Assembly: GCA_024277205.1 (NCBI GenBank) | Contig: JAJRVP010000015.1 | Span: 1,645 to 65,644 of the forward strand | Reading direction: 5' to 3' | DNA from: an archaeon | GTDB taxonomy: Archaea; Nanobdellota; Nanobdellia; CSSed11-243R1 | DNA length: 64,000 bases | Part shown: one piece after another, positions 5,983-9,590 of the stretch | Layout: each line of letters opens with the position of its first letter | Position numbering within the stretch: position 1 is the stretch's first letter | Notes under the pieces: generated by a model | Databases searched by the model: none | What the model was told of the DNA's origin: nothing | Seen by the model: only the letters and a program-made list of their open reading frames with translations | Translations under genes and position numbers: made by a program

Positions 5983-6216
5983 ATGACATACAAAATAATT
6001 TTACCAGATAAAACTGAAATGAAATTTGAAGATAAAAACGGTGCTATGAAATCTGCAAAAGAAAATGCCACAAGACAAAATAAAGTCATATCAGTACATA
6101 TGGAGAAAGGTGGCGAATGGGTTCAAATAGCACTTGTTTATCCAAATGGGTTCATCCAAGAGGGCACAGGTGGATTTGGATTTTTCAAAAACTTGCCAGT
6201 TGGAAGAAGAAGGTAA
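5983..6216 (+). CDS. small hypothetical protein, DUF2188-like (KGG-W motif)
   Basis: 77 aa. VHMEKGGEWVQ resembles the HEKGGW core of DUF2188 mini-proteins. Confidence 0.3.
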   Translation: MTYKIILPDKTEMKFEDKNGAMKSAKENATRQNKVISVHMEKGGEWVQIALVYPNGFIQEGTGGFGFFKNLPVGRRR

Positions 6217-6354
6217 ACAAAATCTTTAAAATCCATAACTATTTCTTTTTTCTTAATGAAAAATGTTTTTAAGTGGTTGATATATTATTCACGAAAAAGA
6301 AGAAAGGGAGTTCCATTTCTGGATTTTTGCATCTAAAATTGAGAGGGATGTTGA

Positions 6355-6591
6355 ATGGTATCTGAGTGGCAAAAAAATTATGAAACCGAAGCAAAAGAAA
6401 TAATTAAAAAATCTGTAGAAGAGTACGAAGATATGGTAAGAATGAGTAACATAGCTGCTGCAAAATTTTGTGAATGTGGTTCTCACCATACCGAGTTTAA
6501 ATTAAGATTTTGTAAAAGGTGCAAAAAATCTTTTTGCAAAGAGCATGGAGATTTAAAAAAGGGAATCTGTTATGAATGTGAAAGGTTATGA
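6355..6591 (+). CDS. AN1-like zinc-finger mini-protein (paralog A)
   Basis: 78 aa. Cysteine/histidine pattern is C-x-C-x11-C-x2-C-x4-C-x2-H-x7-C-x2-C, close to AN1-type zinc fingers. Paralogous to ORF 8429..8632. Confidence 0.5.
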   Translation: MVSEWQKNYETEAKEIIKKSVEEYEDMVRMSNIAAAKFCECGSHHTEFKLRFCKRCKKSFCKEHGDLKKGICYECERL

Positions 6592-6842
6592 AAAAAGAAA
6601 TTCTTGAAGATGTATTAAAATATTTAATTCCATACTATAGATTTGTTATAAATAATGTTCTTAAAGGCAATAAAATAAATGTTAAAGAAATCATTGAAAA
6701 TGGGATTAAAACAGGAGAAGTTATTTTTAATGAATCTTTAAAAATTAATTTAAAAGAACTTGAAAAGCAGAAGGGTAAGAAATGGGTAATTGCTTTAAAA
6801 AAACAACTAAAAATATTTTCAGAAACTATTGAAAAGATTTAA
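6588..6842 (+). CDS. hypothetical small protein, translationally coupled to zinc-finger paralog A
   Basis: 84 aa. The ATGA overlap with the upstream gene indicates coupling. Its 3' end overlaps the convergent ATPase gene by 17 nt. Confidence 0.3.
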   Translation: MKKEILEDVLKYLIPYYRFVINNVLKGNKINVKEIIENGIKTGEVIFNESLKINLKELEKQKGKKWVIALKKQLKIFSETIEKI

Positions 6843-8397
6843 TAAATTTCCCACTAACAGCATCCATAATAACTTCTTTTTTAGAATTTTTAAAAATTAA
6901 TGTGGCTTTATAAAAAGGATAATATATTTTCCTCTCATTCACAATATCTACTTTTTCTCCTAAACTCCTAACAAAAGCACCTAACTCCTTTGAGTCAATT
7001 TTTGATTCCAATCTCTTAGCACTTACTTTTAATCTATTAGCTTCAATTTTTTTCTTTGCAATCTTCTTAAGAGGTGGAAGTCTCAATTTTGTAAATGGGA
7101 AATAAATTCTGCTTCTTCCAATTTTTTTATCTCTTATCAACCCTTTTTCTAAAAGTTTTTTAAGGGACAACCTAATAGACTCGGGAGAGCGTTTAAGTAA
7201 ATAAGCAATTTCTGTGGTTGTTGCTTTTTTCTTTTTTGTTATAATATTAAAAACCTCCAAATCGTTTGTGTCTAATCCTAAAAGTTCATGTATATCAAAT
7301 AAAATTGAAAAACCTTTATCTAATGAAATAATATTTCCTGTGATTCCATCAAAATAAGCATGGATTGTTAAAAATTCATGCCCAATAATTTTTTTCTTAA
7401 GATATTTTATATCACAACTAAATATTGGACGAAGGATTAAATGAAAACCTGAAATAAGAGCGCTCCTTCCGAAGAATTTGAATCTTCTAGTACTCTTTTT
7501 AATCTTTTGAAATGCTTCTTCTTTGGAGATTTGTGGTTTTATACCTATTGTGCTAACTTCTTCAACTTCAGGTGTGGTTTCTTCTTTTTCTTTTAATTCT
7601 GCTTCTAATTCTTCTAATTCTTTTGTTCTTATTACACGACGGCCAAGTATTCTTGGGGTAATTGCCCGATGTCTTGTCTCTCTTTTTCTTATTTTTACAA
7701 GTTTTGGTGAGGATATATCTCCTTGAATAAAAAATTGTCCTGGTTTAAGTTGTGGTAGCTTTTCTAAATCTTCTTTATTTGGAAAAAATAGTTTAACTGC
7801 ATCAATATCATTCCGAATTGTTAATTTTCCAATTATTTGATTTCCACATTGGGATAAAATATTCTTGCTGACAAGCGCAGGTCTTTGCGTTGCGATTATT
7901 AACCCCAATCCTCTTTTTCTTCCACGCCTACTTATTTCCTCAATTTCTTTTAGAATATTTCCTCTTTGTGGTGCAAATTTGTCAATTTCTTCAATTATAA
8001 TGAGATACGGCTGTTTAATTTTACTACCTATTTTATAAATGGCTCTTAAAAATTTAGAAACTGCCTCTCTTGGATTATCCACTTCTGATACATCAAAGAT
8101 TATGGGAATTCCTTTTCTAAGGGCCTTTTCTGCCAGTTTTTTATAATCTACATTTTCAATAGACAGCTCACAATTCTCTCCAGAGCCCACCCAAAGTATT
8201 GGATACTTATCTTTTAAGCTGAAATATTCTCCTTCTGTATCTATTATGCAAAATCCAATATTATTTTTTGCAAGCTCTTCACATATAACTGCAACAGTAT
8301 AACTTTTACCAGAACCGCTCTGCCCAATTATGCAAGTCCTTCCAGTAACTAATTTATCTGCATCTATTCCTGCTTCAGGAGAGATTGCTAATTCCAT
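6826..8397 (-). CDS. HerA/FtsK-superfamily (DUF87-like) P-loop ATPase with C-terminal winged-helix domain
   Basis: Walker A is GQSGSGKS and Walker B is LIIIEEID. The ATQRP motif is typical of HerA/VirB4-like ATPases. C-terminal TTEIAYLLKRSPESIRLSLKKLLEKGLIRD is wHTH-like. Start chosen at Met25 (8397), downstream of the upstream zinc-finger gene stop; the track ORF extends to 8469. Confidence 0.55.
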   Translation of the reverse strand: MELAISPEAGIDADKLVTGRTCIIGQSGSGKSYTVAVICEELAKNNIGFCIIDTEGEYFSLKDKYPILWVGSGENCELSIENVDYKKLAEKALRKGIPIIFDVSEVDNPREAVSKFLRAIYKIGSKIKQPYLIIIEEIDKFAPQRGNILKEIEEISRRGRKRGLGLIIATQRPALVSKNILSQCGNQIIGKLTIRNDIDAVKLFFPNKEDLEKLPQLKPGQFFIQGDISSPKLVKIRKRETRHRAITPRILGRRVIRTKELEELEAELKEKEETTPEVEEVSTIGIKPQISKEEAFQKIKKSTRRFKFFGRSALISGFHLILRPIFSCDIKYLKKKIIGHEFLTIHAYFDGITGNIISLDKGFSILFDIHELLGLDTNDLEVFNIITKKKKATTTEIAYLLKRSPESIRLSLKKLLEKGLIRDKKIGRSRIYFPFTKLRLPPLKKIAKKKIEANRLKVSAKRLESKIDSKELGAFVRSLGEKVDIVNERKIYYPFYKATLIFKNSKKEVIMDAVSGKFIKSFQ

Positions 8398-8428
8398 AAA
8401 AATCCCAAGAAACTTTATGGTTAAATAT

Positions 8429-8632
8429 TTATTCGTGTTCTTCTTGTTCCATATCTTGTATGTCATCAATTATGTCTGCTTCCTCTTGTTTTTTCTCTTC
8501 AAGTTCATAATTTCTGCAATCATCGCAGAGTTCTGTATCTACATCTCCATGTTCTCTGCAGAAACTAGCACCACATTCTTTACATATAAATACTTCTTCA
8601 ACTTCCTTTTCACATATATTACATTTTGACAT
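8429..8632 (-). CDS. AN1-like zinc-finger mini-protein (paralog B) with acidic C-terminal tail
   Basis: 67 aa. Pattern is C-x2-C-x9-C-x2-C-x4-C-x2-H-x7-C-x2-C, followed by a D/E-rich tail. Lies immediately upstream of and co-directional with the ATPase. Confidence 0.5.
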   Translation of the reverse strand: MSKCNICEKEVEEVFICKECGASFCREHGDVDTELCDDCRNYELEEKKQEEADIIDDIQDMEQEEHE

Positions 8633-8684
8633 ACAATAGTTAGGATTCTAATTATTTTTAAATATTACACTTCTTAAATTTAGC

Positions 8685-9590
8685 ATGGAAATTGTATTTC
8701 TCGGAACTGGCAGCATGTTCCCAACAAAAAAAAGAGCACACCCGAGCATTTTTATCAGAGATGAAAAGATTAAATTTTTATTTGATTGTGGAGAAGGGAC
8801 TCAGCGACAAATGCGTATTGCTGGAATAAGTCCAACAAAGTTAGATTACATATTTATAACTCATTGGCATGGAGACCACACATTAGGGCTTGCTGGCATA
8901 TTTCAATCTCTATCTGCAAGCCAAAGAGAAAGAAAATTAATTGTTTATGGCCCTGTTGGAACAAATGCAAGAGTATCTCATTTACTAAAAGCATTTGCAT
9001 TTGATTTAAAATATCCAATTGAAGTTAATGAAATAAAAATCAAAGAAGGTAAGGTATATAGAATAATTGATGAAAAAGAATTTGCAGTTGAAGCAATGTA
9101 TGTCAAGCATATAATCCCATGTGTTAATTATGCATATATTAAAAAAGGCAAAAGAAAAATAAATCTTGAATATACAAAAAAATTTGGGCTTGTGAGACAC
9201 AAAATTCTTGGAAAACTGCAAAAAGGAGAAACAATTGTTTACAAAGGACACAAAATTACACCTGAAAAAGGAACATACTTAACACCAGATAAAAGAATTA
9301 CGTATATAACGGATACAAATTACTTCAAAGGATTAGAAAAGCTTGCAAAAGATGCAGAAATCCTCATTTCAGAAGGAACTTTTTCAGAAGATTTAGAAAC
9401 AAAAGCTCGTGAATACACCCATATGACTGCTAAAGAAGCTGCAAAGCTTGCTAAAAAGGCAAAAGCAAAAAGATTGGTTTTAACCCATTTCTCACAAAGG
9501 TATAAGGATGTCTCAAAGTTAAAAGAAGAAGCTCAAAAAATTTTCAAAAATGTAGAAACTGCAAATGACTTTGATAAGATTATGATTTGA
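8685..9590 (+). CDS. rnz: ribonuclease Z (tRNA 3' endonuclease), metallo-beta-lactamase fold
   Basis: 301 aa. The HWHGDH motif and the length are typical of short-form RNase Z. Confidence 0.8.
   Translation: MEIVFLGTGSMFPTKKRAHPSIFIRDEKIKFLFDCGEGTQRQMRIAGISPTKLDYIFITHWHGDHTLGLAGIFQSLSASQRERKLIVYGPVGTNARVSHLLKAFAFDLKYPIEVNEIKIKEGKVYRIIDEKEFAVEAMYVKHIIPCVNYAYIKKGKRKINLEYTKKFGLVRHKILGKLQKGETIVYKGHKITPEKGTYLTPDKRITYITDTNYFKGLEKLAKDAEILISEGTFSEDLETKAREYTHMTAKEAAKLAKKAKAKRLVLTHFSQRYKDVSKLKEEAQKIFKNVETANDFDKIMI

Follow-up and report, generated by a model that had tools for sequence, protein, structure and literature searches.

The stretch of archaeal DNA analysed here (64 kb, referred to as the window) contains two convergent gene units that meet at the 3' end of a HerA-like ATPase gene. 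On the reverse strand, the mini-protein ZnF-B precedes the ATPase, and on the forward strand, a second mini-protein, ZnF-A, is followed by the gene of an 84-aa basic protein. All four open reading frames lie where an earlier note on this DNA had placed them, and the convergent arrangement and its overlaps are as that note described. At this locus, 31 nt separate ZnF-B from the start of the ATPase, the ZnF-A stop and the start of the 84-aa gene share 4 nt (ATGA, 6588-6591), and a tail-to-tail overlap of 17 nt joins the 84-aa gene (to 6842) with the ATPase (from 6826). The ATPase start is assigned to the ATG at 8397 (MELAIS), in agreement with the orthologues; a longer TTG open reading frame, reaching 8469, would run into ZnF-B. 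A TTTAAAAA box precedes the ZnF-B ATG by about 26-33 nt, and the intergenic region that contains it (8633..8684) is a putative promoter region. A promoter/terminator scan using a sigma-70 model, which is not applicable to archaea, returned no enrichment. The flanking genes encode purine biosynthesis enzymes, tRNase Z, XPD and PEP synthase, and the G+C content is flat. We surveyed one Nanoarchaeota clade whose ATPases are about 47% identical or more (12 loci; hereafter the clade) and 89 loci with more distant members of the ATPase family.

Table 1. Genes and predicted parts of the two convergent units and their immediate surroundings, with positions in the window.
Feature	Position	Strand	Basis and remarks
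77-aa protein, first gene of the convergent unit, C-terminal end GTGGFGFFKNLPVGRRR	5983..6216	+	kept in 11 clade loci
Remnant of a 178-aa membrane-protein gene	6256..6370	+	tblastn with the L027 protein
ZnF-A, 78-aa mini-protein	6355..6591	+	ORF; 16 orthologue clusters; convergent with the ATPase, downstream of it in 11/12 clade loci
ZnF-A parts: N-terminal helical segment, aa 1-37; C/H8 zinc-finger core, aa 39-75		+	
84-aa basic protein gene	6588..6842	+	start overlaps the ZnF-A stop (ATGA); 3' end overlaps the ATPase 3' end
HerA-like ATPase-wHTH fusion, 523 aa, pI 9.7	6826..8397	-	PF01935 and PF01978; homologues; AF2 model
Basic linker and second alpha/beta domain of the ATPase, aa 437-523, net charge +14	6829..7089	-	pLDDT about 90
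Winged helix-turn-helix, aa 373-436, TrmB/ArsR/MarR type	7090..7281	-	
First alpha/beta domain, aa 279-372, helix then long beta-hairpin sheet	7282..7563	-	AF2, pLDDT >90; hhalign
Charged linker of the ATPase, aa 237-278	7564..7689	-	low-confidence model, pLDDT 55-69; length and sequence differ by lineage
ATPase core, aa 1-236, RecA-like HerA-type P-loop domain	7690..8397	-	
ZnF-B, 67-aa mini-protein	8429..8632	-	ORF; 16 orthologue clusters; upstream of the ATPase in 12/12 clade loci
ZnF-B acidic helix and tail, aa 41-67	8432-8512	-	net charge -11; AF2 helix 37-65; motif DIIDDIQDMEQEE
ZnF-B zinc-finger core, aa 1-40	8513-8632	-	AF2 pLDDT about 90
Divergent intergenic region, 52 nt, A+T-rich, common to ZnF-B and tRNase Z	8633..8684	.	
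tRNase Z	8685-9590	+	

The ATPase core carries a Walker A motif (GQSGSGKS, aa 25-32), a Walker B motif (LIIIEEIDKF, region aa 131-141) and the sequences RRGRKRG (aa 157-163) and ATQRP (aa 169-173). The Walker A, Walker B and ATQRP motifs are invariant in 16 sequences from several phyla, and the HerA-type motifs and winged helix previously claimed for the protein are confirmed. The match to PF01935 (DUF87) reaches 59.5 bits against a gathering score of 23.2 (E=6.6e-16), with only aa 9-64 aligning to the model, and the match to PF01978 (TrmB) is above threshold at 28.9 bits against 25.6. An N-terminal HAS barrel is missing from the protein, and so are transmembrane segments, with no hydrophobic stretch visible in the sequence or in the AF2 model (pLDDT 86 overall). 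The two alpha/beta domains that bracket the winged helix-turn-helix (wHTH) are homologous to each other and represent an internal duplication (hhalign 96.7%, E=3e-10). The second of them contains the motif IYYPFY...DAVSGK, with Y492 nearly invariant and Y493, P494, D512 and G516 invariant; it may weakly resemble PepSY (PF03413), which scores 15.9 bits against a gathering score of 24 (E=0.017) in one of the three orthologues tested. The earlier note had described everything past the winged helix as a basic tail of about 130 aa; the segment is indeed basic, but it comprises 87 aa and includes this confidently folded domain. Overall, aa 279-523 carry a net charge of +27. The recognition helix of the wHTH is poorly conserved between lineages, which speaks against a universal DNA motif.

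Relatives of the ATPase were collected by a genome contig scan (at least 26 among the matches listed) and a metagenome scan. Full-length homologues with 37-70% identity occur in Nanoarchaeota, Aenigmarchaeota, Methanomicrobiales, Marsarchaeota and Hadarchaeota, Methanoperedens also has a member of the family, and orthologues occupy syntenic chromosomal positions across many MAGs. The ATPase belongs to an uncharacterised family of HerA-type ATPases that is both ancient and widespread in archaea. Public databases name the family merely "DUF87 domain-containing protein". An exact-sequence look-up of the window's ATPase returned no record, and full-text literature searches of the searchable library, along with PMC4158269, retrieved no description of the ATPase architecture or of a ZnF-HerA pairing, in keeping with the earlier note. 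Across about 100 loci, in which recurrent neighbours were clustered and ten of the largest clusters identified by Pfam, neither NurA, Mre11 and Rad50 nor a Sir2, nuclease, methylase or other effector gene is adjacent to the ATPase; the lack of end-resection partners noted at the window locus is confirmed. In other lineages, the neighbours include a DRG GTPase, a beta-CASP RNase, an amidase and, as read from their sequences, an apparent MutL and KsgA. No partner of the ATPase recurs across lineages, and the contexts are housekeeping ones.

The ligand layouts of the two mini-proteins, C-x2-C-x9-C-x2-C-x4-C-x2-H-x7-C-x2-C in ZnF-B and C-x-C-x11-C-x2-C-x4-C-x2-H-x7-C-x2-C in ZnF-A, belong to a pattern with just two occurrences when the 64-kb window is translated in six frames; 200 shuffles produced none. 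ZnF-A and ZnF-B align with 50% identity over 24 aa (BLASTP, E=2e-8), and their HMMs match each other at 1e-4 to 1e-8. The proposed layouts and paralogy are borne out by these comparisons: the two are predicted two-zinc fingers and paralogues of each other, and both are probably cross-braced. The orthologues of ZnF-A have C-x4-H instead of C-x-C as their first zinc knuckle, and the invariant ligands are C39, H44, C53, C56, C61, H64, C72 and C75. The sixth-ligand "His" of ZnF-B can be H, D, C or N among its orthologues. The whole ZnF-B protein has a net charge of -17, and the motif in its tail is conserved within the clade. All 16 orthologue clusters of ZnF-B fall within this one clade, as do those of ZnF-A.

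With the AN1, FYVE, B-box, HIT and PHD cross-brace fingers, the two mini-proteins and their relatives share eight ligands (C-x2-C-x9-11-C-x2-C-x4-C-x2-(H/C/D/N)-x7-C-x2-C), and their motif CxxCGxxFCxxHG resembles the cores of both AN1 and FYVE; in the model, a helix follows the core. Unlike all of these, they occur as free-standing archaeal proteins, 45-100 aa in length, whose tails are poly-acidic. The AN1 ligand pattern is C-x2-C-x9-12-C-x1-2-C-x4-C-x2-H-x5-H-x-C; the first six ligand positions fit, but the last pair does not, the H-x5-H-x-C ending of AN1 being replaced by x7-C-x2-C. ZnF-B scores 19.2 bits against the AN1 gathering score of 27.9 (PF01428) and ZnF-A has no match, and structure searches rank FYVE and PHD fingers above AN1, the best matches being FYVE and FYVE-related. 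An assignment to AN1 is therefore not supported, and neither, specifically, is the label used in the earlier note. No other zinc-finger family threshold is reached by the Cys/His pattern either: among 101 relatives, the sub-threshold matches are to B-box (20), HIT (15), AN1 (12) and FYVE (6). FYVE domains bind phosphoinositides through the motifs R(R/K)HHCR and WxxD, both of which are absent from ZnF-A and ZnF-B. PDB profile searches with the finger alignments gave nothing significant and were dominated by spurious C2H2 "CKECGKxF" matches. ZnF-B and its relatives make up a larger family of acidic-tailed eight-cysteine mini-proteins, and the relatives turn up in unrelated contexts, in other archaea beside AFOR and FtsX-domain genes or beside RNase P subunits.

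Within the clade, ZnF-B is located directly upstream of the ATPase in all 12 loci, and the short gap (2-31 nt in 11 of them) indicates that the two genes are probably co-transcribed; ZnF-A is located downstream in 11. In one locus (L037), the gene of a 181-aa membrane protein is inserted between ZnF-B and the ATPase; another (L039) lacks ZnF-A. Neither finger is adjacent to the ATPase in any of the 89 distant loci, and a search of these for a non-homologous Cys-rich neighbour yielded a single rubredoxin-like ORF (L014), which we take to be due to chance. The pairing expected from the window locus is thus found in other genomes of the clade but not beyond it. Because the co-occurrence is confined to one Nanoarchaeota clade, the fingers were added in this lineage and are not a defining trait of the family; the ATPase is an uncharacterised HerA/FtsK-superfamily variant with lineage-specific zinc-finger partners. 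Homologues of the 84-aa protein are present in eight clade loci and absent from L029, L031, L038 and L040, and the 84-aa protein, the 77-aa protein and ZnF-A have nothing credible in Pfam, NCBIfam or PADLOC. In relatives, an intact 178-aa membrane-protein gene lies between the 77-aa gene and ZnF-A; at the window locus, it has suffered an internal deletion of about 390 nt, and tblastn with the L027 protein recovers only the N-terminal 24 aa (79%) and the C-terminal 15 aa (80%), the L028 protein giving weaker matches.

Comparison with characterised motors bears on what kind of ATPase this is. HerA of Sulfolobus solfataricus (PDB 4d2i), the archaeal end-resection helicase/translocase, possesses a HAS barrel and has nothing like the alpha/beta-wHTH-alpha/beta half that takes up the C-terminal part of the ATPase, which scores 64.7 and 63.5 bits with the curated HerA models NF040819 and NF040937 and thereby fails their cut-offs of 970 and 800. 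With NurA, Mre11 and Rad50 next to the ATPase in none of about 100 loci, the least probable of the explanations we considered is a canonical HerA whose partners in double-strand-break end resection are these three proteins, encoded elsewhere in the genome. From FtsK/SpoIIIE, the ATPase differs in its HerA-type core (PF01580 reaches just E=0.0056, below its threshold), in starting directly with that core with no N-terminal membrane domain before it, and in its predicted TrmB/ArsR-like wHTH, which sits between the duplicated alpha/beta domains and is not terminal. It is very unlikely that the protein is what is left of a system for plasmid transfer, conjugation or DNA import (a VirB4, TraG or CedB-like ATPase) or of a viral packaging ATPase, since the VirB4 model TIGR00929 scores 24.2 bits against 643, plasmid and phage matches span only aa 15-250 with no record covering 80% or more of the protein, transmembrane segments are missing, no T4SS, Ced, pilin, relaxase, integrase or capsid genes are found nearby, the composition fits the genome, and orthologues hold the same chromosomal slot in many MAGs. 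The core finds its best sequence matches in defence proteins, namely those of Sir2-HerA (Nezha), HerA-DUF4297 and MADS mad8, the last of which is similarly small (314 aa): PADLOC HerA models match at 3.8e-30 to 1e-13, mad8 at 1.2e-18 over the whole core, and the best PDB sequence matches (9c1m, 8xau) are defence-system HerA proteins. Even so, an anti-virus module of this type, with the fingers as sensors or effectors, seems improbable. The matches are limited to the common ATPase core and miss every curated NCBIfam cut-off by tenfold or more, no partner gene matches PADLOC, about 100 loci show no adjacent effector, nothing at the window locus indicates a defence island, and the family is conserved at full length over several archaeal phyla, unlike patchy defence genes. 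Housekeeping flanks, flat G+C, synteny and the lack of effector and T4SS genes speak against both origins suggested in the earlier note, a defence module and a plasmid-derived VirB4-like remnant.

A weightier alternative concerns the fingers. They may be functionally unrelated to the ATPase, ordinary lineage-specific mini-proteins held in the inherited gene order of a compact-genome clade. Throughout the clade, synteny extends over the entire block, tRNase Z and XPD included, so inherited gene order alone could account for the finger-ATPase adjacency; the fingers are no more syntenic than tRNase Z, XPD and the 77-aa gene. The 89 ATPase loci without fingers are consistent with this account, and the insertion at L037, the loss of ZnF-A at L039 and the ZnF-B relatives in unrelated contexts both favour it and count against the explanation that we prefer. 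However, the fingers and the short intergenic gaps are kept down to about 47% ATPase identity, and ZnF-A still adjoins the ATPase where the genes beyond the 77-aa/ZnF-A side are reshuffled from locus to locus (purD, DNA ligase, pyrB, purC, purM). The clade-specific acidic motif of ZnF-B, moreover, suggests a specific partner. We consider a lack of functional connection a credible but less probable account. The best explanation, to which we give about an even chance, is a chromosomal block in a housekeeping context, built around a HerA-type nucleic-acid motor with clade-recruited zinc-finger partners.

HerA, FtsK and VirB4 assemble into rings. In the explanation that we prefer, the HAS-less RecA-like motor, followed by a linker, an alpha/beta domain, the wHTH and a second alpha/beta copy, would likewise form a ring and spend ATP on translocating or remodelling nucleic acid, with dsDNA as the likeliest substrate. 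Loading the motor onto this substrate, or orienting it there, would be the task of the strongly basic C-terminal module with the wHTH at its centre, a design logic like that of the FtsK motor with its gamma wHTH, except that the core is of the HerA type and a membrane anchor is lacking. In one clade only, two paralogous two-zinc mini-proteins would have been recruited beside the ATPase. The acidic amphipathic C-terminal helix of ZnF-B may dock on the basic C-terminal half of the ATPase; the calculated charges of the two (-17 and +27) appear complementary, which we count in favour of this explanation. ZnF-B might thus serve as a regulator or adaptor, e.g., by competing with nucleic acid. ZnF-A, which shares its convergent unit with the 77-aa and 84-aa proteins, would have a weaker link to the ATPase. 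We also considered, as unlikely, that the protein is a soluble archaeal counterpart of FtsK, a site-directed DNA translocase for segregation, unlinking or nucleoid clearance in which the fingers are regulators and the acidic helix gates the DNA-binding module, or else a HerA-type motor that works on RNA or ribosomes. The former, if true, would serve archaea without FtsK. Neighbours with links to RNA or ribosomes recur (tRNase Z, beta-CASP RNase, DRG GTPase, apparent KsgA) and make an RNA substrate conceivable; together with a stalk-tail neighbour, they are the grounds for considering a motor that works on RNA or ribosomes.

Motors of the HerA/FtsK superfamily act in chromosome segregation, DNA repair, conjugation, viral packaging and several recently described defence systems. 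The ATPase described here represents an archaeal branch conserved at full length from DPANN to Methanomicrobiales, and we found no description of its combination of a HAS-less core and a bracketed wHTH. The association with the fingers is narrower, yet it gives a natural starting point in the search for a regulator, and it brings to notice an unannotated archaeal family, of considerable size, of eight-cysteine mini-proteins with acidic tails. Since, to our knowledge, most archaea lack FtsK, a HerA-type motor with a predicted DNA-binding domain in a housekeeping context would be a reasonable candidate for chromosome handling.

All four open reading frames claimed for the block by the earlier note, encoding two zinc-finger mini-proteins (ZnF-A and ZnF-B), an 84-aa protein and a HerA-like ATPase fused to a wHTH, are present, and its observation is largely correct. 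The ATG start of the ATPase is backed by orthologue N-termini (MELxIS). The ZnF-A stop and the 84-aa start share an ATGA, the 3' ends of the 84-aa gene and the ATPase run 17 nt into each other, and 31 nt separate the end of ZnF-B from the start of the ATPase. G+C content of the window is about 31% and flat across the region, and housekeeping genes, some named by reading their sequences, surround the block (purB, purC, purD, a DUF5654 protein, tRNase Z, XPD helicase, PEP synthase and ribosomal protein L10e). Beside ZnF-A lies a decayed gene for a membrane protein of 178 aa, of which an internal deletion of about 390 nt has left just the N-terminal 24 and C-terminal 15 aa; relatives (L027, L028, L035) have an intact copy whose last 49 or so nt overlap the start of ZnF-A. 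Pfam, NCBIfam and PADLOC gave no family for the neighboring 77-aa protein, and a Gly/Phe motif in its conserved C-terminus (EGTGGFGFFKxLPVGRRR) loosely recalls ribosomal stalk tails.

Features of the window, of its ATPase and of related loci (L, fetched loci)
Feature	Position	Strand	Remark
77-aa gene	5983-6216	+	77 aa
Decayed membrane-protein gene	6256-6370	+	
ZnF-A	6355-6591	+	78 aa
84-aa gene	6588-6842	+	84 aa
ATPase	6826-8397	-	523 aa, counted from ATG
ZnF-B	8429-8632	-	67 aa
tRNase Z	8685-9590		
Charged linker	ATPase aa 237-278		low confidence
First alpha/beta domain	ATPase aa 279-372		well folded
TrmB-type wHTH	ATPase aa 373-434		
Second alpha/beta copy	within last 87 residues of ATPase		after wHTH
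Intact membrane-protein gene	L027 4300-4836		
Intact membrane-protein gene	L028 6000-6536		
Apparently split or frameshifted ATPase	L005 6001-8145		
beta-CASP/RMMBL RNase	L105 1472-2869		
About-100-aa protein	L033 5663-5965		
About-100-aa protein	L034 5985-6485		
About-100-aa protein	L041 3204-3503		
About-100-aa protein	L047		
About-100-aa protein	L049 4355-4657		
About-100-aa protein	L061 3806-4108		

The ATPase belongs to the DUF87/HerA-like superfamily. Against Pfam it matches DUF87, the HerA central domain (59.5 bits), and, above threshold, the wHTH (28.9 bits); curated NCBIfam models for HerA, VirB4 and CedD match partially, at a small fraction of their cut-offs, and the PADLOC HerA and mad8 models match the core only. 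Because Walker A begins at aa 25, a HAS barrel is absent, and neither the sequence nor the model shows a hydrophobic segment that would span a membrane. The enzyme is presumably active, since Walker A, Walker B, an RRGRKRG motif and TQRP do not vary from phylum to phylum. What had been read as a 130-aa basic tail is instead an 87-residue segment holding a second copy of a folded alpha/beta domain (hhalign probability between the copies 96.7%, E=3e-10), itself weakly PepSY-like (E=0.017), and the net charge over the C-terminal half is +27.

Full-length homologues are numerous (about 510-550 aa, 37-70% identity, 97-100% coverage) and come from Nanoarchaeota, Aenigmarchaeota, Methanomicrobiales (including Methanoculleus isolates), Methanoperedens, Hadarchaeota and Marsarchaeota, with shorter relatives (about 450-460 aa) in Micrarchaeota; the closest are from MAGs labelled Nanoarchaeota or Nanoarchaeia by their sources. 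In a peat-methanogen lineage (L005, L089, L090, L092, L104) the gene appears split or frameshifted: a 546-aa ORF is followed, as in L005, by separate ORFs that encode the C-terminal alpha/beta and wHTH module. Neighborhoods are of housekeeping type and vary by lineage: the window clade has tRNase Z and XPD, Methanomicrobiales have what read from sequence as MutL and KsgA, another large group has a DRG GTPase, and others have a beta-CASP RNase, amidase or DeoC. A second DPANN group (ATPase 37-41% identical) has a protein of about 100 aa near the ATPase at six loci, in four of them (L033, L034, L041, L061) convergent and 1-2 genes downstream. It matches no Pfam family, and its C-terminus (EE-x-AAA-x-G-x-GGIFG) resembles the tail of archaeal ribosomal stalk protein P1, a tail that binds translational GTPases.

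The defence and plasmid origins raised in the earlier note are both unsupported. Across the ATPase-family neighborhoods there is no recurrent NurA, Mre11, Rad50, Sir2, nuclease effector, T4SS component or integrase, and in plasmid and phage collections the relatives align to the core alone (aa 15-250, at most 35% identity), with no entry covering 80% of the protein. Two haloarchaeal plasmids (L115, NZ_CP090374.1 1-1656; L116, NC_013747.1) carry genes for DUF87 proteins, about 550-600 aa long, whose 35% identity to the ATPase is confined to its core; one such gene is the first of a 34-kb plasmid and another adjoins a ParA gene. At least one tested defining feature sets the ATPase apart from each of canonical HerA, FtsK, VirB4 and the known defence systems based on HerA, and the literature searched describes neither this architecture nor the finger association.

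HMMs built for ZnF-A, ZnF-B and the 84-aa and 77-aa proteins were scanned against six-frame ORFs of 114 fetched loci. In the close clade (Nanoarchaeota loci with an ATPase about 47-70% identical), ZnF-B lies upstream of the ATPase in 12 of 12 loci with upstream flank, and ZnF-A lies downstream and convergent in 11 of 12 with downstream flank, L039 being without it; 11 loci also keep the 77-aa gene, and 8 the 84-aa gene. The gap between ZnF-B and the ATPase is 2-31 nt, except in L037, where a 181-aa membrane-protein gene is inserted. A word-indexed search of 5.8 billion sequences returned 16 clusters for each finger family, all sharing contigs with close ATPase orthologues. The 89 other ATPase-family loci (81 distinct ATPase sequences, 43% identity or less; at least 400 nt upstream in 80 and downstream in 75) gave zero matches to the four HMMs, and the sole other small Cys-rich ORF adjoining an ATPase among them is rubredoxin-like. 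The association is thus real yet clade-restricted: the proposed paired module recurs in the close clade but in none of the 89 other loci. General synteny partly confounds the association. On the ZnF-B side tRNase Z and XPD are constant, and past ZnF-A and the 77-aa gene the neighbors differ (purD, DNA ligase, pyrB, purC, purM).

Six-frame translation of the window yields exactly two occurrences of the Cys/His pattern and 200 shuffles yield none, and the claimed paralogy of the mini-proteins is borne out by BLASTP (E=2e-8, 50% identity over 24 aa) and by HMMs that match each other. ZnF-A orthologues keep eight ligands (C-x4-H-x8-C-x2-C-x4-C-x2-H-x7-C-x2-C); those of ZnF-B keep seven Cys, have H, D, C or N in the sixth place and carry a long acidic helix after the finger with a clade-specific motif (D-I/V-x-D/H-D/E-hydrophobic-Q-D/E-hydrophobic-E-Q-E). 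The suggestion of AN1-like adaptors finds no support: zf-AN1 is the top Pfam match of ZnF-B but below threshold (19.2 bits vs 27.9), ZnF-A has no zinc-finger match in Pfam, PDB profile searches gave nothing significant, and sub-threshold Pfam matches of 101 relatives scatter over B-box (20), HIT (15), AN1 (12), DZR, MYND, Prok-RING and FYVE. Both are therefore classed as generic two-zinc fingers, probably cross-braced, and not as AN1 members.

An exhaustive profile search of 1.84 billion representatives returned 171 clusters at E of 1e-3 or better, mostly stand-alone proteins of 44-100 aa (MPxCEICGxxVxxVYxCKxCGxxFCxxCGDxxxxLCxDC, then a poly-acidic tail). These archaeal eight-cysteine mini-proteins form a sizeable unannotated family (clusters at 50% identity; P0153-P0297, loci L117-L122), no member of which reaches threshold for a Pfam model. 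Three sampled relatives lie between AFOR and FtsX-domain genes or adjoin RNase P subunits. At L121 (3001-6177) a finger mini-protein and a secreted, repeat-rich DUF87/HerA_C-domain protein of 3106 aa lie two genes apart, the mini-protein upstream, with a 111-aa protein in between; outside the close clade this is the only zinc-finger/DUF87 proximity found.

By homology, the ATPase core would form a ring coupling ATP hydrolysis to nucleic-acid translocation, and the basic alpha/beta-wHTH-alpha/beta module is the evident candidate for substrate binding or loading, a layout like that of FtsK but built on a HerA chassis and lacking a membrane anchor. ZnF-B (net charge -17), tightly linked to and probably co-transcribed with the ATPase, most plausibly acts as a regulator or adaptor peculiar to the clade and would contact this module. 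ZnF-A and the 84-aa and 77-aa genes form a separate convergent unit whose link to the ATPase is less certain. A metallo-beta-lactamase-fold RNase is the divergent upstream neighbor in two unrelated lineages (tRNase Z in the window; beta-CASP/RMMBL RNase in L105 and nine similar loci), the DRG GTPase takes the same slot in another, and KsgA apparently lies downstream in Methanomicrobiales; these neighbors may hint at an RNA-related role. Several lineages have the gene beside RNA-processing or ribosome-related genes, and RNA could take the place of DNA as its substrate. Of greater interest than the paired module, a lineage-specific elaboration, is the far more widespread orphan ATPase on which it builds.
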